Below, piece after piece: positions 32,447 through 41,780 of a DNA stretch of 59,808 bases; the stretch's first letter is position 1; every line of letters begins with the position of its first letter. Both the position numbers and the translations under genes were made by a program. Location of the stretch: NCBI GenBank assembly GCA_964577365.1, contig CAZNYP010000001.1:50025-109832 (forward strand). The letters are read 5' to 3'. The stretch comes from an uncultured Candidatus Saccharibacteria bacterium (GTDB lineage: Bacteria > Patescibacteriota > Minisyncoccia > Phycocordibacterales > PALSA-1337). The notes under the pieces were generated by a model. That model saw only the letters and a program-made list of their open reading frames with translations. It did not search any database and was not told the origin of the DNA.

Positions 32447-35167
32447 TCAAGTAACCACAATATTGATGAGTTTATCCGGGATAAAAATGACCTTTTTCGC
32501 CTGATCTACCTTTACAAAGTCCAATGCTTTTTTCTCTAACTCCTCCCTGCTCTCGCCACCACTCACTTCGATCACTCCCTTTGTCTTTCCATTGAGCTGA
32601 ATAACTATTTTCTTTACATCAGCCTGGATTTTCCCTTCGTCTGCGGTGGGCCACTCTGATATATGGATACTCTCCTTTTTACCGATTTTTGTCCAGATCT
32701 CGTCTGCGATATGTGGTGCAAATGGAGCTACGAGCTGCACAAACTGTTCATACACCGATTTTGGAATGACCATTTCTTTTTCAAATTCATTGAGCGCGAT
32801 CATTAGGCTGCTCACTGCTGTGTTGAACCGCATGAGTGAAATGTCTTCGGTCACTTTTTTTATCGTCTTATGCAGCACAGAATCAATGTGTCGTGATGGT
32901 GTATCGAGACCGACTTTTTCTTTGAGCTTCCAGACACGCTCGATAAATCGGCGTGAACCGATGATGCTCGATGTATCCCATTTTATCTGCTGATCAAATG
33001 GACCGAGGAACATTTCGTATACTCGTAGTGTATCAGCACCGTATTTTGCAACGATATCATCTGGGTTCACTACATTTCCGTATCGCTTTGACATCTTGCG
33101 ACCGTCCTCTGCCATGATGAGACCTACATGCTGTAGTTTTTTAAATGGTTCGAGTGTCGAGACTGCTCCGATATCGTATAGGAATTTGTGCCAAAAACGG
33201 GCATAGATGAGGTGTCGGGTCGCATGTTCGGCTCCACCTACGTAGAGGTCTACCTGATTCCAGTATTTTTCTTTTTCCTTGTCTACCAGTGCCTTTTTAT
33301 TGTCCGGATCCATATAGCGGAGGTAGTACCACGAAGAACCTGCCCACTGGGGCATGGTATTGCTCTCGCGGGTATATTTTTCTTTACCGATTTTGACGTT
33401 CATCCACTTTTTTATACCTGCAAGCGGAGATTCACCGGTACCAGTCGGCTCGTATGATTTTACTTTTGGCAGTTCTACCGGAAGTTCTTTTTCTGAAACA
33501 GGAATTACCCCTTTTTCTCCATGCAGCACAGGGATAGGCTCTCCCCAATATCGCTGTCGTGAAAACACCCAGTCACGGAGCTTGTATTTTGTGATCCATT
33601 TTCCATTTACATGCTCTGCGATCTTCTTTTTGACTGTCTCCGAATTTTTCCCAGAAAATTCTCCAGAATTGTACAGCTCGCCACTGCCAGTATATGCATG
33701 CTCTTTTTTCAAAAACTTGCTAAACACCCATGGAAGCTCTGCGCCAGCTACTTCTTTTTCGAGGTTGTCACGATGAACCCAGACATTGTCATGGAGCTTT
33801 GTATCTTCAACACTTTTCTCTGTCTTTATCTCATCTCTTAATTTAAATAAAAGTGTACGAACGGTCGCAAATCGATTTTCATTTTTGTGCTGCGCAAAAT
33901 ACTCTGCATGCACCACTCCAGCTACCTCACCGACATAGTCAATATTGCTGTATCCCGTCTCTTCGGATATTTCACGCTGGGCGGATACAACTGGGTTTTC
34001 ACCCTCATCTACACCACCAGTTACGAGAAAAGTTCGCCCACCATAGTATTCTGGTTTCCATTTCACACATAAAAATAGATTCGGATCGGTTGGATGCTCA
34101 ACGATGCAGCGTACGTTATTTCTTTTTACTGTCTTCTTTCCTTTTACAGGTAGATTTTCCTTATCGATAAAATGAGGGATGATCACTTCTACACTCTTTA
34201 TATTGTGCTTTTTTGCAAATTCAAAGTCCCGTTCATCGTGTGCAGGCACGCCCATCACTGCCCCAGTTCCATAATCACTGAGAACGTAGTCAGCGACAAA
34301 TACAGGGATCTCCTCACCATTTGCCGGATTGATTGCGACTAGTTTTTTCTTTTTTGCGAGTGCATGTGACTCGGAAATAGCCAAATACGTCACACCATAT
34401 ATCGTGTCAGGGCGTGTGGTAAATATTTTTATTTTCTCTTTTGATCCTTTTACTGCAAAATCGATCTCAGCTCCCTCACTCTTTCCGATCCAGTTTTTCT
34501 GGCTTTCGACGATAGAGGACGGCCAATCGACATAGTCGAGGTCAGAGAGAAGTCGCTCTGCATAATCAGTGATACGGAGCACCCACTGGCGCATCGGCTT
34601 TTTTTCTACGAGTGTCCCACAGCGTTCACATTTTCCATCCTCGACGTCCTCGTTTGCGAGACCCGTTTTATCGAACGGACACCAGTTGATCGGTTCGTAT
34701 GATTCGTACGCCAACCCTTTTTCCAAAAGCTTGAGGAAAATCCACTGCGTCCACTTGTAGTATTTCGGATCTGTCGTGTTGATCTCTCGATCCCAGTCAT
34801 AGTCAAATCCGAGGATCTCGAGTTGCTTTTTATAGCGCGCTACATTTTTCTTTACCGCATCCACTGGGTTCGTCTTTGTCTTTATCGCATAGTTTTCAGC
34901 CGGCAATCCAAATGCATCAAACCCCATCGGGTGAAGCACATTGAACCCTTGCATGCGCTTCATGCGCGATACGACGTCTGTCGCGATATAGCCTTTTGGA
35001 TGACCGACGTGTAGTCCTTCTCCAGAGGGATACGGGAACATGTCGAGAATATAAAATTTGGGAGCATTAGATGCGTCTTTTGTACGATATATATTTTTCT
35101 TGGCCCATTCCTTTTGCCATTTTTGTTCGATATATGAGTGATCGTACGCCCTTGGGTCAGGTTTCAT
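32447..35167 (-). CDS. leuS: leucine--tRNA ligase carrying an inserted Nudix domain
   Basis: HVGHPKGY (HIGH-type), KMSKRYGN (KMSKS), and editing motifs TTRPDT and GTGAVMGVPAHDERD. The start is set at ATG 35167, with TGgTATTTT 6 nt upstream. An insert of about 150 aa contains a perfect Nudix box. Confidence 0.95.
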   Translation of the reverse strand: MKPDPRAYDHSYIEQKWQKEWAKKNIYRTKDASNAPKFYILDMFPYPSGEGLHVGHPKGYIATDVVSRMKRMQGFNVLHPMGFDAFGLPAENYAIKTKTNPVDAVKKNVARYKKQLEILGFDYDWDREINTTDPKYYKWTQWIFLKLLEKGLAYESYEPINWCPFDKTGLANEDVEDGKCERCGTLVEKKPMRQWVLRITDYAERLLSDLDYVDWPSSIVESQKNWIGKSEGAEIDFAVKGSKEKIKIFTTRPDTIYGVTYLAISESHALAKKKKLVAINPANGEEIPVFVADYVLSDYGTGAVMGVPAHDERDFEFAKKHNIKSVEVIIPHFIDKENLPVKGKKTVKRNNVRCIVEHPTDPNLFLCVKWKPEYYGGRTFLVTGGVDEGENPVVSAQREISEETGYSNIDYVGEVAGVVHAEYFAQHKNENRFATVRTLLFKLRDEIKTEKSVEDTKLHDNVWVHRDNLEKEVAGAELPWVFSKFLKKEHAYTGSGELYNSGEFSGKNSETVKKKIAEHVNGKWITKYKLRDWVFSRQRYWGEPIPVLHGEKGVIPVSEKELPVELPKVKSYEPTGTGESPLAGIKKWMNVKIGKEKYTRESNTMPQWAGSSWYYLRYMDPDNKKALVDKEKEKYWNQVDLYVGGAEHATRHLIYARFWHKFLYDIGAVSTLEPFKKLQHVGLIMAEDGRKMSKRYGNVVNPDDIVAKYGADTLRVYEMFLGPFDQQIKWDTSSIIGSRRFIERVWKLKEKVGLDTPSRHIDSVLHKTIKKVTEDISLMRFNTAVSSLMIALNEFEKEMVIPKSVYEQFVQLVAPFAPHIADEIWTKIGKKESIHISEWPTADEGKIQADVKKIVIQLNGKTKGVIEVSGGESREELEKKALDFVKVDQAKKVIFIPDKLINIVVT

Positions 35168-35197
35168 AATATTAAAATACCACAAATCGAAAATTAT

Positions 35198-35241
35198 GTA
35201 AAAGAAAACCCACCGGCCACGCGTTGCAGTGTGGGGGTGGG
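35198..35241 (-). terminator. imperfect GC-rich hairpin with U-tract ending the small-membrane-protein operon just upstream of leuS
   Basis: cccacc...ggtggg outer stem with internal pairing. On the minus strand it is followed by ttttctttt. Confidence 0.5.
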
Positions 35242-35418
35242 TCGATTTCTTCGGAGGGGGTATCCAGTCTTGGCCCTTCGTCCGGTATACCGTGGTGATG
35301 ACAACACCGCTGCCCGCAGGAAACGGTGGTGTCGCCTCGGTTATGGCGAACGTGAGGATGAGGTGTAGGATCCCCCAGATAAGCAGGAGCTTGATCATGG
35401 GATGAAGAACGTGCTGCT

Positions 35419-35562
35419 CTACCAGGGCGAGTAGGAAATGGAGTGGAGTGCGCCCATGATCCAATCGCCGATGATGTAGATGCCGGATGCAATCGCGAGG
35501 ATGATGATCCCCGCCAACACGATGCTTGCCGGCTTTACGGTGGTGTTAGCTCTGTGGCTCAT
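35419..35562 (-). CDS. small membrane protein (47 aa, 1 TM)
   Basis: Hand translation gives MSHRANTTVKPASIVLAGIIILAIASGIYIIGDWIMGALHSISYSPW. It lies 14 nt after the previous stop. Confidence 0.45.
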   Translation of the reverse strand: MSHRANTTVKPASIVLAGIIILAIASGIYIIGDWIMGALHSISYSPW

Positions 35563-35576
35563 ACGGTTGAGGTTGT

Positions 35577-35714
35577 TTACTTGATGTACTTGACCCAGGT
35601 TGGAAGTGGTTTGTGCAAAAAGTCATAGGATGCCATCATCATGGCTCCACAAAGAGTCAGGAGGCACATGACTGCAAGGAACAGCATCCCTGCTGTGCTT
35701 GTGTTAAATTTCAT
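35577..35714 (-). CDS. small membrane protein (45 aa, 1 TM)
   Basis: MKFNTSTAGMLFLAVMCLLTLCGAMMMASYDFLHKPLPTWVKYIK, from an internal ATG of the 76-aa track ORF. Confidence 0.45.
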   Translation of the reverse strand: MKFNTSTAGMLFLAVMCLLTLCGAMMMASYDFLHKPLPTWVKYIK

Positions 35715-35727
35715 GCCGATGTATACG

Positions 35728-36000
35728 TTACCACATATCATTATGTGTGTAAATAGCAAACCCGCCAACAATGGCGGGCGCGTGCACAGGGTAGCATGCG
35801 AGTGCAACCCAGTAGAGGATGACTAGAACCATCCCGAAAAGTGCGGCGTACAGGCCGGACTTGATGACCCAGTGATCCCTCTCATACCCATCGAGGCGAG
35901 GAAAGGTCGAGAGTACTGCGCCGAAGAGGAGGAGAACTCCGCCCGTAATCCCGACATACGGGACCTGGAGGAGTGTGATGATGAGCTGAAAGAGTTTCAT
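35728..36000 (-). CDS. small membrane protein (90 aa, ~3 TM)
   Basis: MKLFQLIITLLQVPYVGITGGVLLLFGAVL... The start codon overlaps the upstream stop as ATGA. Confidence 0.6.
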   Translation of the reverse strand: MKLFQLIITLLQVPYVGITGGVLLLFGAVLSTFPRLDGYERDHWVIKSGLYAALFGMVLVILYWVALACYPVHAPAIVGGFAIYTHNDMW

Positions 36001-36290
36001 GCTTCCCACCTCACTCCCCTCATCGCAAGGCCGGCAGCGATGGTACCGCAGACGAATGCGAGCAGTACAGCAGACATGCCCCGATGGTTCAATGCACCAT
36101 CTTCTGCGACGGCAAAGGTGACGGCTGCTGTGATCACGAAGCCGACAGTGAGCGCAGTGAGCACCCTGAGTGTGTTTGGGTTCCGCGTGATACTTTCGAG
36201 CGGACCGAAGTGGTCCCAAAACAGGAAGAAAAATAGTGCGATCAGCTGAGAACCGAGAACAATGATGAGATGAAACGTAGTGATGCTCAT
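35997..36290 (-). CDS. small membrane protein (97 aa, ~3 TM)
   Basis: MSITTFHLIIVLGSQLIALFFFLFWDHF... The start overlaps the upstream stop as ATGA. Confidence 0.6.
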   Translation of the reverse strand: MSITTFHLIIVLGSQLIALFFFLFWDHFGPLESITRNPNTLRVLTALTVGFVITAAVTFAVAEDGALNHRGMSAVLLAFVCGTIAAGLAMRGVRWEA

Positions 36291-36487
36291 ACGATTTTCT
36301 TTTTGATGTAGTTCACACCGTGACCGAGCCAAAAGCAGGCCACGACGACGGCGAGGAAGAGACAGACGGGCACACTCACGAGTGGCCGTATAGAGCTCCT
36401 CCACCACTCTTCTTCTGGGTCAGAGAACCAGAGAATGCAGAGAAAGTAGAAAGGCAAAAGCCCCACCAAGAGTTTTAGAAGAGCCAT
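36287..36487 (-). CDS. small membrane protein (66 aa, 2 TM)
   Basis: MALLKLLVGLLPFYFLCILWFSDPEEEWW...VPVCLFLAVVVACFWLG... A possible promoter TTGCTC-N17-TATGTT lies 9 nt upstream. Confidence 0.55.
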   Translation of the reverse strand: MALLKLLVGLLPFYFLCILWFSDPEEEWWRSSIRPLVSVPVCLFLAVVVACFWLGHGVNYIKKKIV

Positions 36488-36510
36488 ATACCCATAAACA
36501 TACACCCGAC

Positions 36511-36981
36511 TCAGGCTGCGAGCAAGTCTATGATTTCAAAATGCTTCTTCTCCACCGGCATCACCGATAGTCGCTGCCCGCGCTGCGCAACTAGCATCCC
36601 CTGCAATTGTTTATTTTTCTTTATATTTTCGAGTGAAACTGGGTTTGTAAACTTTTTAACAAATTCGAGATCGACACAGACCCACAGTGGATCTTTTCCT
36701 TCTTTCTGATATTTCAGCGCTTTCGGATCGTAGTGCTCATTTTTTGGATCAAGTGCTGACTCATCGATATGCGGAGCGCTCACTACTTTGGCGATCCCAT
36801 ATACACCCGTCGGATCTGACATCGAGTGATAGAAAAGGACAAGGTCACCGATCTTCATCCCTTCTTTCATAAAATTGCGTGCTTGAAAATTGCGAATACC
36901 CTCCCAGGCAGTTCGCTTATCAGCTTTGAGATCATCGATCGAGTAGCAGTTTCCTTCGGATTTTACGAGCCAATAGTTCAT
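36511..36981 (-). CDS. EVE (PUA-like, DUF55) domain protein
   Basis: MNYWLVKSEGNCYSIDDL......W.GIRNFQARNFM..MKIGDLVLFYHS......GVYGIAKVV is the typical EVE pattern. Confidence 0.85.
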   Translation of the reverse strand: MNYWLVKSEGNCYSIDDLKADKRTAWEGIRNFQARNFMKEGMKIGDLVLFYHSMSDPTGVYGIAKVVSAPHIDESALDPKNEHYDPKALKYQKEGKDPLWVCVDLEFVKKFTNPVSLENIKKNKQLQGMLVAQRGQRLSVMPVEKKHFEIIDLLAA

Positions 36982-38062: not shown

Positions 38063-38074
38063 GTGGGAAGAAAT

Positions 38075-38785
38075 ATGAACACACTCAAAGACTACGGTCT
38101 ACACTTCCAAAAGATCTATGGTACTGCGAATGCAGTTAACCACCCCGGCCTCATCGACCGCTACATGCAACTCCTCTACGTGTTCCATCGCCTGCAAACG
38201 GCGATACGTAAAGAACAGAGGGATACGGCCTGCCGTCTTCTTCCCCAGTTGTTCGGTTGGACATTTGCTTGTATCAACCATTTCCCAGATCTTGACATTG
38301 ACCGCGCGATGGCACAAAAGTATCCCGCAAAATGTGGGTACTGTGGCAATAATCCGTGCAGGTGCGAACTGCATAGCCGACCTGATTTCAACCCAGACCT
38401 ATCAGGCACCATCGTCAGACGAAACCTAACGGACTGGCAAGAGCACCTGTACCGAATGTATGGGGAAAACAATGCACAGCGCGGTCTGGGTGTCATGATG
38501 GATCGCTTGGCGCAGGAGCTCATCGAACTCGGTGCTCATGCTGCGCGACTGGAGTATGTCGACGCTGAGCCACAGGTTGCCATGGAAAAAGCAGGCGAGG
38601 AATTCGCAGACGTTCTGTCATGGATACTGTCGCTCTCCGCGTACCTCGGTGTAATGCTCGAGACCCTAGTCATCCGTATCTATGGCAATGGCTGTCCGTC
38701 ATGCAATCGACCTCAGTGCAACTGTCGTCGTCTACACTCGACACCAGCTGGCCTGAGTGCGACTCCAAATACTCGAGTTACCTAA
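38075..38785 (+). CDS. tandem MazG-like (all-alpha NTP pyrophosphohydrolase-like) protein with two Cys knuckles
   Basis: The second half has LAQELIELG and EEFADVLSWILSLSAYLG, resembling the EExxE/EExxD metal motifs. The first half has the same helix pattern but lacks the acidic residues. Each half ends in Y-x3-5-CxxC-x4-5-CxC. The region is G+C-rich. Confidence 0.68.
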   Translation: MNTLKDYGLHFQKIYGTANAVNHPGLIDRYMQLLYVFHRLQTAIRKEQRDTACRLLPQLFGWTFACINHFPDLDIDRAMAQKYPAKCGYCGNNPCRCELHSRPDFNPDLSGTIVRRNLTDWQEHLYRMYGENNAQRGLGVMMDRLAQELIELGAHAARLEYVDAEPQVAMEKAGEEFADVLSWILSLSAYLGVMLETLVIRIYGNGCPSCNRPQCNCRRLHSTPAGLSATPNTRVT

Positions 38786-38872: not shown

Positions 38873-39259
38873 ATGAAATCGCTCTTCGACTATATCTTTT
38901 ACACTGTTTGTGTCAGCCGAGGATCCAAGTCTCTCTATCGTCTTGAAATCAGATGCAACGGGGTAAGTAACCCTGGCATTCGAATGACCAAGATTGTGGG
39001 AGTCGGGCCAAGCAGTTCACCTCCTGGGGCCGACCATTTCGGTAACTACCTACATGTGGGGGAAAATCTCGTGGTCCGCTACGAGAAAAACTCACTCGAC
39101 GGTGGCAGGAACACTTCCCGCATCGCCCTCCTTGCAACTGATGAGGGGGGAGCGCGTACCGCACTGGGACTCCCCGACTTGGTCCCGATGGATCCTCGAT
39201 TCGAGGTTTCCACAAAAGCCGTGCTTGCGCGACTCGCGCAGCACGAGTATGTGGACTGA
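38873..39259 (+). CDS. hypothetical protein (128 aa), leaderless orphan
   Basis: The ORF starts 8 nt after a TATAAT box and ends 24 nt before a strong terminator. No family motif recognised. An internal ATG at 38985 (MTKIVGV...) is an alternative start. Confidence 0.55.
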   Translation: MKSLFDYIFYTVCVSRGSKSLYRLEIRCNGVSNPGIRMTKIVGVGPSSSPPGADHFGNYLHVGENLVVRYEKNSLDGGRNTSRIALLATDEGGARTALGLPDLVPMDPRFEVSTKAVLARLAQHEYVD

Positions 39260-39325: not shown

Positions 39326-39727
39326 ATGAAATACATTCTGATTCCGCTTTTTCTCCTCATCGCATTACCCACTCACGCTCATATCATAAAGAAAGATGGA
39401 AATTTTGAAGGAATGCTTCACATTCTCCCCGACGATATACCACTAGCAGGTACGACGACTGAATTTTATTTTATGTTTGAAGACAATAAAAAAATCGTCA
39501 CTGACTGCAAATGTGAAGTAAAAATCCTACAAAAAGGAAATGAACTGTATAGAAAAAATATCAAGGACTCTTTCTTTTTTGAGTTTCCAAAGATCGGTGT
39601 CTATCAAGCAGAAATTTATCGAAATGATTTTTCTATGACCTGGGATATACGAGTAGAAAAAGCGGTGGTAAAGCCGTCGTGGTTTAGCGTTTTCGCAAAG
39701 AGAGTCCGAGAGCTACTAGGGATATAA
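39326..39727 (+). CDS. secreted hypothetical protein (133 aa), predicted mature N-terminal His
   Basis: Signal peptide MKYILIPLFLLIALPTHA followed by HIIKKDG... TGcTATAAT lies 6 nt upstream. It is convergent with ycnI and their tails overlap. Confidence 0.62.
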   Translation: MKYILIPLFLLIALPTHAHIIKKDGNFEGMLHILPDDIPLAGTTTEFYFMFEDNKKIVTDCKCEVKILQKGNELYRKNIKDSFFFEFPKIGVYQAEIYRNDFSMTWDIRVEKAVVKPSWFSVFAKRVRELLGI

Positions 39728-40199
39728 CGAGGGCGAGAGTTGCGAGTGGAAACGGTTTCTTTGGCTCACCATGATGATCCGTCGCGAGGTCGTCGACCAC
39801 TTCGGTATTCGAGCTCGGATTTACCCCACCATCCCACGCAACGACACTACCATCAGAATATGTCTGATATGCTTTCCATGAGACGACTCCCTCGGTCGCA
39901 GGTGCTTTTGCAGAAAAAAGGAAATCATCGCGCTGTCCTACTGGGATACTTCCCCCACTCCAGACGATCTCTTTTCCATCACTTGCGATCTTCCATCCTG
40001 GTTTTACATATGGCATGACAGACTCGAATCCTGCTGGCACGACGACTTTTATCTGAGTAGTCGGAATATCTTTTTCAACTGGCACACCGACGGTGAATGT
40101 CTGGTATGATGCTACACCCGTCTGTGCAGGTTTTACGGTGACGTGGGCGAATGCAGGCACAGCAACAAACACTAAAAGTAAAGTAAATATAGTTTTCAT
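39684..40199 (-). CDS. ycnI: YcnI-family (DUF1775) copper-binding protein with a C-terminal membrane anchor
   Basis: Signal peptide ...AVPAFA followed by HVTVKPAQTGVASYQTFTVGVP.E......I.VV.P.GF.....V.PGW is the YcnI pattern. A C-terminal TM helix is present. Confidence 0.83.
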   Translation of the reverse strand: MKTIFTLLLVFVAVPAFAHVTVKPAQTGVASYQTFTVGVPVEKDIPTTQIKVVVPAGFESVMPYVKPGWKIASDGKEIVWSGGSIPVGQRDDFLFSAKAPATEGVVSWKAYQTYSDGSVVAWDGGVNPSSNTEVVDDLATDHHGEPKKPFPLATLALVISLVALGLSLRKR

Positions 40200-40432
40200 T
40201 ATGGCATCATTATTTTTTGTAATTCTGCTTGGTGCTTTCGCATGACCATCATACTCGCTTCCATCTGGCCCATGCCACCATTCATTTTTTCTTTTATCTC
40301 CTTTGAAATCATAATGAAAAAGTCAGGATTGGCCTCGACTGCATTCATAATACGATCCTGCTCCTTTGGAGGCAGGTTTTTGAGCTGCTTTTTCATCATC
40401 TGCTTCATCACAAAATTTTGAAATATTCCCAT
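40199..40432 (-). CDS. Met-rich small protein (77 aa, ~14 Met)
   Basis: MGIFQNFVMKQMMKKQ...MNGGMGQMEASMMVMRKHQAELQKIMMP. TGcTATAAT lies 7 nt upstream. Its stop overlaps the ycnI start as TAATG. Confidence 0.6.
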   Translation of the reverse strand: MGIFQNFVMKQMMKKQLKNLPPKEQDRIMNAVEANPDFFIMISKEIKEKMNGGMGQMEASMMVMRKHQAELQKIMMP

Positions 40433-40451
40433 GGCCAGGATTATAGCATAT

Positions 40452-41780
40452 TTACTCCGGCCGACTACCTTTTGGATATCGCTCGAGGGGGTCGGCCTTC
40501 CACCCATTTACGATCGGGGTGATGAATTTCCATGCAGCGAGCACTTCGTCGGTACTGGTAAATAGCGTTTGGTCACCGATAAATGCATCGTGAATGACTT
40601 TTTCATAGGCATCTATTTTTTCATGAGGAAAATCAGAGTATTTAAATTTTAACGTCTTTGGCTCTATATCCATACCAAAACCCGGTTTTTTTACCAAAAA
40701 CTTTATCTTTATTCCCTCATCAGGCTGGATCCTAAAGGTGAGAATATTCCCACCTTTGAAATATACATCGATTTCAGTCTTTGTCTCATCGAGGGCTTTT
40801 CCACTCTCGAGGTAAAATGGGACTTTTTTCCATCGCGCTGTGTTGATATGCGCTTCGAGTCTAAAATATGTCTCGGTATGTGATCCTGGATCGACGCCCT
40901 TTTCCTCACGATAGCCACTGTACTGGGCACGGATAGCATCGATGGACTGGAGGTTGCGGAGGATCTTTGCTCGTTCACGACGAATGTGCTCTGCGTCGAG
41001 GACCTCTGGCTCGTCCATGGCGACGATCGCAAGCATCTGGAGGATGTGGTTCTGCCCCACATCGCGAAGCGCTCCGACCCCATCATAAAATGCACCACGC
41101 CCCTCGATATCTATTTTCTCGAGGAGCTTGATATGTACACGATCGATGTATTTGTTGTTCCAGAGCGGTTCAAACAGAGAGTTTGCAAACCTGAATACGA
41201 GCACATTTTGAAGTGCCTCTTTTGCGAGATAGTGGTCGATACGAAAAATCTGGTCTTCGGCAAAGAGCTCGCCGAGTTTTTTATCTAGTTTCTTTGCAGT
41301 CTCTATATCGTTGCCAAATGGCTTTTCGATGAGGACGCGTGTCCACCCCTCTTCGCCCCCACACGGGATCGTGAGTCCGGTGCTCGAGAGATGGTCGAGG
41401 ATATTTTCATAGAGCGCTGGAGGGACAGAGAGGTGAAATAGTTTGTTTGAACAATATTTGAATTGTTGTTTGTCGATCGAGGTAAGGCGTTCTGCGAGAC
41501 GGTTGTACATATCGTCAGTATCAAATGATCCTTGGACATATGAGATGTGATCGATAAAATGTTTTACATCTTCTTCGCGGTACTGACCAAATTTTATATT
41601 GATCTCATCACGGATAAACTGACGAAATTCTTCGCGAGAAAGGAGTCTGCGTGAGACACCGACAACGGCGAATTTTTCTGGAAGCTTTTTATTTACATAC
41701 AGACTGAGCAGCGCCGGCAAGAGTTTCCGCTGTGCCAGATCTCCGGTGATACCAAAAATGACGAATATGGTGGGGCTCAT
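40452..41780 (-). CDS. zwf: glucose-6-phosphate 1-dehydrogenase
   Basis: FVIFGITGDLAQRKLLPAL NADP motif, RIDHYLAKE active-site motif, and EKPFG. Confidence 0.93.
   Translation of the reverse strand: MSPTIFVIFGITGDLAQRKLLPALLSLYVNKKLPEKFAVVGVSRRLLSREEFRQFIRDEINIKFGQYREEDVKHFIDHISYVQGSFDTDDMYNRLAERLTSIDKQQFKYCSNKLFHLSVPPALYENILDHLSSTGLTIPCGGEEGWTRVLIEKPFGNDIETAKKLDKKLGELFAEDQIFRIDHYLAKEALQNVLVFRFANSLFEPLWNNKYIDRVHIKLLEKIDIEGRGAFYDGVGALRDVGQNHILQMLAIVAMDEPEVLDAEHIRRERAKILRNLQSIDAIRAQYSGYREEKGVDPGSHTETYFRLEAHINTARWKKVPFYLESGKALDETKTEIDVYFKGGNILTFRIQPDEGIKIKFLVKKPGFGMDIEPKTLKFKYSDFPHEKIDAYEKVIHDAFIGDQTLFTSTDEVLAAWKFITPIVNGWKADPLERYPKGSRPE

Follow-up and report, generated by a model that had tools for sequence, protein, structure and literature searches.

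Between an EVE-domain gene and leuS, on the minus strand of the 59,808-nucleotide stretch analyzed here (the window, part of contig CAZNYP010000001.1 of an uncultured Candidatus Saccharibacteria bacterium), lies a block of small hydrophobic open reading frames (ORFs), three of which are conserved in a few close relatives and evolve under purifying selection. Downstream of the EVE gene (36981-36511; Pfam EVE, E 2e-49) come ORF A (36487-36287; 66 amino acids, aa), ORF B (36290-35997; 97 aa), ORF C (36000-35728; 90 aa), ORF D (35714-35577; 45 aa) and ORF E (35562-35419; 47 aa, with a C-terminal YSPW), each opening with ATG on the minus strand. Hydropathy predicts two transmembrane (TM) segments in A, three in B, two or three in C, whose count turns on a single long first segment, and one each in D and E, two hypervariable ORFs of which D is of uncertain coding status and E is tenuous. 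ATGA stop/start overlaps join A to B (36290-36287) and B to C (36000-35997), and a Shine-Dalgarno-like GGAG/GAGGTG lies within the 3′ end of B, ahead of the start of C. Past E, a conserved element (35398-35252, minus strand) begins with the ATG of a possible sixth ORF, F, and contains a 121-nt RNA hairpin (35256..35376); a predicted intrinsic terminator and leuS (32447-35167, minus strand, ATG at 35167) follow. Pfam confirmed the identities of the flanking EVE, ychF and leuS genes. The first-pass annotation of this DNA had described the five minus-strand ORFs A-E with the same lengths and overlap positions, all of which were reproduced, and its TM counts of 2, 3, 3, 1 and 1 compare well with the 2, 3, 2-3, 1 and 1 of our hydropathy scan.

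Four other contigs, which represent three further lineages (L081/L082, L083 and L084), have A, B and C in the same order with both ATGA overlaps. L081, a 76.8-kb contig of a metagenome-assembled genome at NCBI, carries ychF, EVE, A, B, C, a 44-aa ORF and leuS; L082, a short Logan contig, is of the same type, and L084 has the same layout with a SET-domain gene (2311-2718, 135 aa, PF00856) added between ychF and EVE. L083, also a Logan contig, carries a 95-aa A-like ORF, B, C, a 95-aa D, a 41-aa E and leuS. Amino-acid identity between the window and L081 is 61% for A, 43% for B and 68% for C, and between the window and L083 it is 76% for B and 87% for C; the 95-aa A of L083, which has no identity value, resembles the window version mainly at the N-terminus. 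Only a few residues in a hundred separate the YchF of the window from that of L081 (dN 0.02). Nei-Gojobori ratios of nonsynonymous to synonymous substitution (dN/dS) among the window, L081 and L083, with the poorly alignable 95-aa A left out, are 0.12-0.41 for A-C (A, 0.22 for window against L081; B, 0.12-0.28; C, 0.30-0.41) versus 0.03-0.06 for ychF and EVE.

Population data tell the same frames apart. Other freshwater and wastewater runs yield contigs of 89-100% identity with the window; within the ORFs these carry 33 variants, 21 at codon position 3, nine at position 1 and three at position 2; all 21 third-position changes are synonymous, as are 22 of the 33 overall, and the replacements are mostly conservative (I/L, V/I, K/R, T/A). 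The phase of the variable codon position shifts frame exactly at the A/B and B/C boundaries. A has seven synonymous and four nonsynonymous variants, six of them at position 3; five of the six variants in B are synonymous third-position changes; and those in C fall eight at position 3, four at position 1 and one at position 2. Sequencing runs X10-X13 contributed almost no further variants. An antisense ORF of 125 aa across the block was considered as a gene and rejected, with seven synonymous and 11 nonsynonymous variants in its frame, including one new stop. From the conserved overlaps, the dN/dS values and the frame-specific synonymous variation, A, B and C are real protein-coding genes, under a purifying selection that these comparisons put at about ten-fold relaxed relative to the neighbors. 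The first-pass annotation had made its proposal hinge on conservation of the ORFs and their overlaps in relatives, and for A-C both are kept.

The same data bear on the view that the ORFs are non-functional, either frames that opened by chance where a G+C-rich spacer has few stops, or what frameshifts have left of a larger membrane-protein gene. The region is indeed stop-poor and also holds overlapping ORFs of 136 and 163 aa besides the antisense 125-aa ORF, so ORF length by itself is weak proof; five ORFs in alternating frames have the classic look of a broken gene; and in distant relatives the slot holds a 300-320-aa membrane protein with a DUF5671 domain. Against this stand the frame switches of synonymous variation at the ORF boundaries, the dN/dS of 0.1-0.4, ORF lengths and overlaps that are identical among genomes differing at 30-55% of residues, the lack of any longer homolog among 1.84 billion proteins, and the rarity of a same-strand ORF tiling as complete as this one among dinucleotide shuffles (4 of 2000). 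The DUF5671 protein occupies the same slot and strand and has about five TM segments, but it is one chain with a large C-terminal domain, and no profile-profile similarity to A-F was detected: hhalign probabilities were 0.4-28% and not colinear, and Pfam DUF5671 (PF18920) matches none of the six. We regard a non-genic origin of the ORFs as barely credible; it is largely refuted for A-C and would be possible for D and E.

The block products have grand averages of hydropathy of 0.75-1.03, with values of about 1.0 and strong hydropathy peaks in A-C. A carries a conserved pattern, LWFSD-acidic loop-RP..SVPVC..VVACFW..KKIV, and C carries a loop motif, PRLxGYxRDHW, and a C-terminal HAPAxVGGFAIYTxNDMW, these two in C being invariant or nearly so. 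B conserves FGPLE..R.P in a predicted cytoplasmic loop and RGVR at its C-terminus, and varies in loop 2 and in helices 2 and 3. No motif in A, B or C points to an enzymatic or transport activity, and AlphaFold2 single-chain models of B and C, built on alignments of three to four sequences, show helices only (three in B, with a predicted local distance difference test score, pLDDT, of 63). The block stands out in composition, as the first-pass annotation had noted: its G+C content is 51-58%, against about 43-46% in the flanks and 46% in the whole window, and G+C at third codon positions (GC3) is 0.59-0.81 in the window's block ORFs versus 0.37-0.51 in eleven long window genes and 0.45-0.48 in ychF, EVE and leuS. 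Across all three genomes compared (the window, L081 and L083), GC3 of the block genes is 0.51-0.81. Second codon positions of the block ORFs are rich in T (0.35-0.46), as expected of hydrophobic proteins.

The block is bounded by its own signals. A promoter-like element, TTGCTC-N17-TATGTT (36497..36525, minus strand), has its -35 hexamer (36525-36520) within the last EVE codons and its -10 hexamer (36502-36497) ending 9 nt before the ATG of A. It matches 7 of 12 consensus positions and was not called by our promoter scan, yet the element, which the first-pass annotation had picked out, is conserved in the window, L081 and L083. In L083 EVE is not upstream; homology starts about 20 nt before the EVE stop, just after a degenerate copy of the ychF 3′ end, so the promoter segment travels with the block. 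Between the -10 hexamer and the ATG of A lie 9-15 nt with 1-nt indels in a metagenome variant and in L083/L084, which marks this stretch as non-coding and fixes the start of A at 36487. A transcript from this element would be nearly leaderless, its leader very short or absent.

At the other end, the predicted terminator (35200..35243, minus strand) consists of a GC-rich stem (35243-35207) and the tract UUUUCUUUU, with a folding free energy (dG) of -22.7 kcal/mol and a z-score of -4.2 in the window. L083 has a terminator at the same place with a different stem sequence and the pairing kept (dG -29.9, z -5.5); in all three genomes a stem of -20 to -30 kcal/mol (z -3.7 to -5.5) is followed by UUUUCUUUU, and the alignment (A3) contains compensatory pairs. 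Outside the block and marking its boundary lies the promoter-like site of leuS, TTTACA-N17-(TG)TATTTT (35174..35202, minus strand), which the scan did call (9 of 12 positions, extended -10; -35 at 35202-35197); 6 nt separate its -10 hexamer from the leuS ATG at 35167, and the site is identical in the window, L081 and L083 and nearly so in L001, the nearest relative without the block. The GC hairpin and U-tract that had been proposed to end the block are thus present, but not 30 nt ahead of the leuS promoter as had been stated: the U-tract abuts or overlaps the leuS -35 hexamer. Both promoter-like sites (35174-35202 and 36497-36525) end 6-9 nt before an ATG, and several relatives (for example, L002 and L004) have a terminator 20-40 nt before the leuS start codon; given this arrangement, mRNAs with no leader or almost none may well be common in the group. 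The leuS frame is also open for 99 codons 5′ of its true ATG, back to a TTG at 35464 (35167-35464, minus strand), across the terminator, the hairpin and part of E, and automatic annotation could therefore assign LeuS a false membrane-anchored N-terminal extension, 1005 aa in total.

From C to the hairpin the sequence varies strongly and is occupied by D of 45 aa and E of 47 aa in the window and by D of 95 aa and E of 41 aa in L083. Only the first 15 aa of D resemble the L083 version, and L081 and L084 lack D and have a single unrelated 44-aa, single-pass ORF that opens at the conserved D start site; every genome retains the start context, 13 nt past the end of C. E is 34% identical to the L083 ORF ending in YAPW, 27-36% identical between genomes, and shares a C-terminal Y-x-P-W. 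L081 and L084 differ in this stretch by one synonymous and three nonsynonymous changes, and the metagenomic variants of E are two synonymous changes and one I>L. The phase-specific GC3 (0.59-0.81; 0.81 in E) and the two synonymous E variants argue weakly for translation, and we take D and E for ORFs that turn over fast or are doubtful. The earlier description of at least five real, translationally coupled proteins thus stands for A, B and C, with their conserved overlaps and purifying selection; it is weaker for D, absent from L081/L084 and 95 aa long in L083, and for E with its low identity.

The conserved element between E and the terminator escaped the first-pass annotation. Its 121-nt hairpin has an invariant basal stem, GGGGGAUCC/GGAUACCCCC, and an apex formed by a CC-tetraloop-GG. 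RNAalifold and three independent single-sequence folds agree on the structure (dG -44 to -54 kcal/mol, z -2.8 to -4.3). In the alignment 91% of cells pair, versus 36-48% in slid controls; compensatory double changes occur at 11 pairs, versus 1-4 in controls, and at 8 of the 15 pairs of the variable center, the upper stem; and none of 500 shuffles reached the covariation score. Pairs of G-U outnumber those of A-C by 12 to 4, which favors the minus (sense) strand as the one that folds. This evidence comes from three sequences, with the structure derived from the same sequences, and is suggestive; on it, we think the hairpin probably is a functional RNA structure. A covariance model built on it matches only the four block loci among 56 sources (855 kb), and Rfam has nothing for the hairpin region, the window or the related loci. 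The hairpin is single-copy in the window and its model matches are confined to the block loci, so that a repeated element, such as a miniature inverted-repeat transposable element, was set aside. Integron attC sites, imperfect palindromes with R′′ (RYYYAAC) and R′ (GTTRRRY) at the 3′ end of a cassette, were also considered and rejected: the hairpin ends in GGGGGATCC and GGATACCCCC, its inner GTTCGCC and CCGAACG are off consensus, and there is no integrase.

The hairpin coincides with ORF F, a hydrophobic frame of about 50 codons that encodes MIKLLLIWGILHL...VYRTKGQDWIPPP (also written MIKLLLIWGILHLILTFAITE...VYRTKGQDWIPPP). In the window this frame meets no stop before leuS, with which it is in frame; it is conserved in L081 and L083 at 54-67% identity, with GC3 of 0.71-0.76 and stops beyond the terminator. 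What look like conserved peptide motifs in F correspond to the invariant basal stem, IWGIL to one of its arms and DWIPP to the other; the variable linker of fixed length is the upper stem, and substitutions in F are spread flat across codon positions. Translation of F is doubtful, though compatible with a functional RNA structure.

One could also place F, the hairpin and the terminator together as a cis-regulatory leader that controls read-through into leuS, an arrest-peptide attenuator or an RNA switch, with the upstream ORFs secondary. F does run through the terminator in all three genomes, with any stop beyond the U-tract, and the conserved hairpin lies directly 5′ of a terminator that precedes an aminoacyl-tRNA synthetase gene. 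F also recalls uA_LPPP, one of the XPPP-type arrest peptides with an N-terminal signal or TM segment (PMC10987492), in its N-terminal TM segment, its spacer of about 28 residues and its conserved ...DWIPPP; it differs in that the downstream gene is leuS and not secA, secDF or yidC, that the PPP is far from the end, with the ORF running at least 23 codons beyond it where arrest motifs of this kind lie within about 15 residues of the end, and that its coding is doubtful. The arrest-peptide idea was abandoned once RNA covariation showed that the conserved motifs are the basal-stem arms. Against a leader of either kind, leuS has its own conserved promoter after the terminator, present also in L001, where F is missing; the invariant IWGIL and DWIPP are explained as stem and the substitutions in F are flat across codon positions; the downstream gene encodes no Sec/YidC component; 27 other relatives lack an F-like ORF ahead of leuS; and neither the T-box leader (RF00230), which has no match at E up to 1 in 35000-36700 nor at the gathering score in the window and eight related loci, nor any other Rfam family is found. 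We consider such a leader very unlikely.

Homologs of the block proteins are confined to this clade. A phmmer search of the concatenated products against 1.84 billion representative proteins returned three matches, all within the clade: C itself and the B homologs P0002 (78% identity) and P0003 (45%). Profile searches with B and C against 5.8 billion proteins gave three 90%-identity clusters each, again all from this clade, the clade being the lineages of the window, L081, L083 and L084. Pfam, NCBIfam, PHROGs and PADLOC yielded only sub-threshold hydrophobic noise, and sequence profiles of the PDB yielded no match. A, D and E were unmatched in the protein collections searched. A word-indexed protein search with concatenated A-E found nothing and missed even the 78% homolog, probably because hydrophobic words swamped the candidates; exact look-ups of the B, C and EVE proteins returned no record; and two metagenome scans at the Joint Genome Institute, with block peptides and the C profile, were empty. 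No block paralogs occur in the window, and no kinship was detected among A-F or with a 71-aa ORF of L001. A signature of type IV pilins or pseudopilins, whose class III signal peptide combines a short basic leader with G at -1, F or M at +1 and E at +5, was sought and not found: none of the six N-termini has G-F-x-x-x-E. The first-pass view that no product belongs to a recognized family, the small Mnh/Mrp subunits and holins included, is thus upheld by library, PDB and exhaustive protein searches that are empty outside the clade.

We posit, with a confidence slightly better than even, that the block is a self-contained transcription unit whose A, B and C products co-assemble in the membrane, and that it was probably acquired as a cassette. 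Transcription would start at the block's own promoter, overlapping the end of EVE, and stop at its own terminator just before the leuS promoter; the ATGA overlaps would set A, B and C in fixed proportion, and the three proteins would assemble as one small hetero-oligomer of about seven to eight helices in the cytoplasmic membrane. The fixed ratio and co-assembly are suggested by the retention of both overlaps while the sequences drift to 43-68% identity. The first-pass annotation had also suggested a multi-subunit assembly, which might be a transporter, channel, immunity or host-interface complex. D and E would be one or two fast-turnover, single-pass ORFs after this core, and the hairpin would most likely act as RNA, on the stability or processing of the 3′ end or in the control of read-through. 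The small subunits MrpE/F/G (MnhE/F/G) offer a parallel that suggests co-assembly: consecutive genes of about 65-100 aa, with 2-3 TM segments each and 4-nt overlaps. They differ in that no large MrpA/D-type subunit is nearby here and that the block has its own promoter and terminator; none of the six products matches PF04066, PF03334 or PF00420 at E up to 1, the neighbors are EVE and leuS, and membership of the Mrp/Mnh family was rejected.

Several observations weigh against this interpretation. ATGA overlaps also join genes whose products do not interact. The block is missing from L001 and is hence dispensable. D and E have dN/dS of 0.5-1.2 (0.73 for D) in poor alignments and show no clear purifying selection. 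With only four lineages, the statistics on selection and covariation rest on very few sequences, and the AlphaFold models (pLDDT about 62-63; predicted template modeling scores, 0.32-0.37) are uninformative past the presence of helices. Divergence is also mosaic: between L081 and L084 it is 0.5% in A and 9.5% in C, with none (0%) in the hairpin. Together with synonymous divergence (dS) between the window and L081 that is 1.4-1.9 in A and B versus 0.7-0.8 in the flanks, this points to recombination among alleles.

If the ATGA overlaps were only a matter of compaction, A, B, C and the other products could be independent small membrane proteins, each modulating some other, larger protein, as AcrZ, KdpF, CydX and MgtS tune their larger partners. 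The sizes and the single- to triple-pass topologies fit; A-F have no detectable similarity to one another; and the genome is tightly packed, with ychF and EVE 1 nt apart. The block products share with AcrZ, KdpF, CydX and MgtS their very short length, hydrophobicity, poor conservation and tendency to be missed in annotation, and D and E are single-pass; but those proteins are usually encoded in or beside the operon of their partner, whereas no candidate partner adjoins the block, only EVE and leuS, and A-C are multi-pass. The overlaps, moreover, are strictly kept at 43-68% identity, which suggests selection on coupled expression. We regard independent modulators as an improbable account of the block.

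The proposed transcription unit is consistent with expression data. Five wastewater libraries labeled 'RNA-Seq cDNA' contain contigs 96-100% identical to parts of the block, one of which spans the end of EVE, the promoter and A, while another covers most of the hairpin; each of the runs examined contained such pieces. A depth comparison over 20 kb found both block bins non-zero in all four runs, at a depth similar to or above that of leuS and most neighbors. Also to be counted among the reservations above, these contigs are assembled and unstranded, and their RNA status is taken from the library labels.

The distribution of the block, which the first-pass annotation had likewise missed, is very narrow: it is restricted, at genus level, to a handful of closely related Paceibacteria of the candidate phyla radiation (CPR). 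In L001, the nearest GTDB representative (Candidatus Paceibacterota), whose YchF is 93% identical, EVE is present and the block is not; an unrelated 71-aa, 2-TM ORF lies between EVE and leuS there, and a 181-aa ORF is inserted between ychF and EVE. The gap between ychF and leuS is thus variously filled, with EVE, the SET-domain gene, the 181-aa ORF and the 71-aa ORF in some relatives and with the DUF5671 protein in many. The latter, a protein of 300-320 aa whose DUF5671 domain (PF18920; E 2e-26 for L008) is N-terminal and whose C-terminal domain contains Cys, lies between ychF and leuS in L005, L008, L016, L019, L020, L022, L027, L041, L053 and L060 and is the usual occupant in more distant Paceibacteria. 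In L081 a spacer of 250 nt, which contains a terminator-like hairpin, separates ychF from EVE, two genes that are 1 nt apart in the window. The last ~33 nt of ychF (…KDGDVMEFKV*) recur as degenerate copies that flank inserted genes downstream of ychF in six genomes (L001, 11775-11806; L083, 113-146; L002, ~11257; L004, ~9850; L006, ~11214 and ~11872; L020, ~11384); none was found in the window itself. These copies look like the footprint expected of repeated, apparently site-specific insertions that replace the 3′ end of the gene, and the ychF-leuS gap is, on the evidence of its contents, a hotspot of insertion and gene turnover.

The GC3 shift kept in all genomes, the block's own promoter and terminator, and the hotspot together suggest that the cassette was probably gained once, in the ancestor of a few species, either laterally, as we infer, or by local (de novo) origin. 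Its proteins evolve about ten times faster than the housekeeping neighbors. No donor, integrase or mobility gene was found, nor convincing direct repeats flanking the block in the window; the first-pass suggestion of acquisition as a unit is thus plausible from the composition and the hotspot downstream of ychF. With lineage-restricted ORFan genes of bacterial genomic islets, the subject of two reviews (PMC12315717, PMC11293555), the block shares the lack of homologs beyond a genus-level clade, a deviant composition, a variable slot and evolution faster than that of the neighbors. The block differs in being a coherent six-element cassette with coupling, promoter, terminator and structured RNA, and not a lone ORF.

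A hotspot with ychF 3′-end remnants, foreign-looking GC3 in all genomes and a near relative, L001, that lacks the block would also suit a selfish or conflict cassette from a mobile element or phage: a toxin/immunity pair, a superinfection exclusion system, or a holin-like or type-I-toxin-like module with RNA control. Hypervariable single-pass D and E fit this picture, and, where type I toxin-antitoxin loci pair a small hydrophobic toxic peptide with a cis-encoded antisense or overlapping small RNA, the block contains the small hydrophobic ORFs D, E and F and a highly structured RNA; a long structured RNA inside a hydrophobic ORF of 50 codons resembles hok-type mRNAs. Yet no integrase, lysin, phage or defense gene is nearby, and a search of 2.9 million viral contigs for the block peptides and the C profile was empty. 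The sole holin match, Phage_holin_3_6, has an E-value of 0.78, far under the cut-off, and a holin/lysis cassette was rejected, as was an anti-phage effector, the best PADLOC match being a generic '2TM effector' (E 0.064, 11 bits); the best PHROGs match, at E 0.045, is a family of unknown function. A consensus scan detected no antisense promoter. Finally, A-C occupy a fixed place on the chromosome, and purifying selection has acted on them across a dS of at least 0.6. We assign a conflict cassette a small share of the probability.

Co-assembly of A-B-C could also be part of a more ambitious scheme, in which the three proteins form a hitherto undescribed, genus-specific complex of episymbiotic Paceibacteria, D and E are diversifying surface or interface determinants, and the hairpin is a new cis-acting RNA that sets transcript level or 3′ fate, the whole being a portable cassette of promoter, mini-membrane complex, RNA element and terminator for the envelope or host interface. 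Taken in full, this scheme strikes us as improbable.

Other features lie close by. In the LeuS of the window, within residues ~230-560, the CP1/editing domain is shortened and followed by an inserted NUDIX domain (residues 349-471, E 1e-9). The catalytic and anticodon-binding parts are 94-100% identical among the window, L081 and L083, whereas the module of CP1 remnant plus Nudix is 14-40% identical between the window and L083/L001, so that two very different insertion alleles are found in near-identical enzymes. Across ychF lies a second G+C-rich island (51-59%) with two orphan ORFs on the plus strand and no Pfam match, one of 240 aa (38063-38785; Cys-rich, with CxxC-type motifs) and one of 128 aa (38873-39259); L081 and L084 have unannotated genes at the corresponding place. 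Farther on, a DUF1775 (YcnI-like) protein (39684-40199, minus strand), with a signal peptide and a C-terminal TM anchor, adjoins a 102-aa Met-rich ORF (40199-40507), a pair that we presume may be copper-related.

CPR/Patescibacteria genomes are rich in small hypothetical membrane proteins, which annotation misses or confuses with noise, and a lineage-specific cluster of such proteins is unsurprising in a CPR genome; on present evidence this is a solid but fairly ordinary orphan locus that opens no long-standing question. What is noteworthy is the cassette architecture, the hotspot and the covarying hairpin: three small membrane-protein genes are real and selected, as comparative and population data alone were enough to establish, and they form an autonomous cassette at a site where close relatives carry other cargo. 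If A, B and C do form a complex, the block would be a tractable, minimal and fast-evolving envelope module in an ultra-small episymbiont, and the hairpin would add a new structured RNA to a phylum in which very few have been described. If they do not, the locus would still be a clean case for studying how orphan genes arise and turn over.

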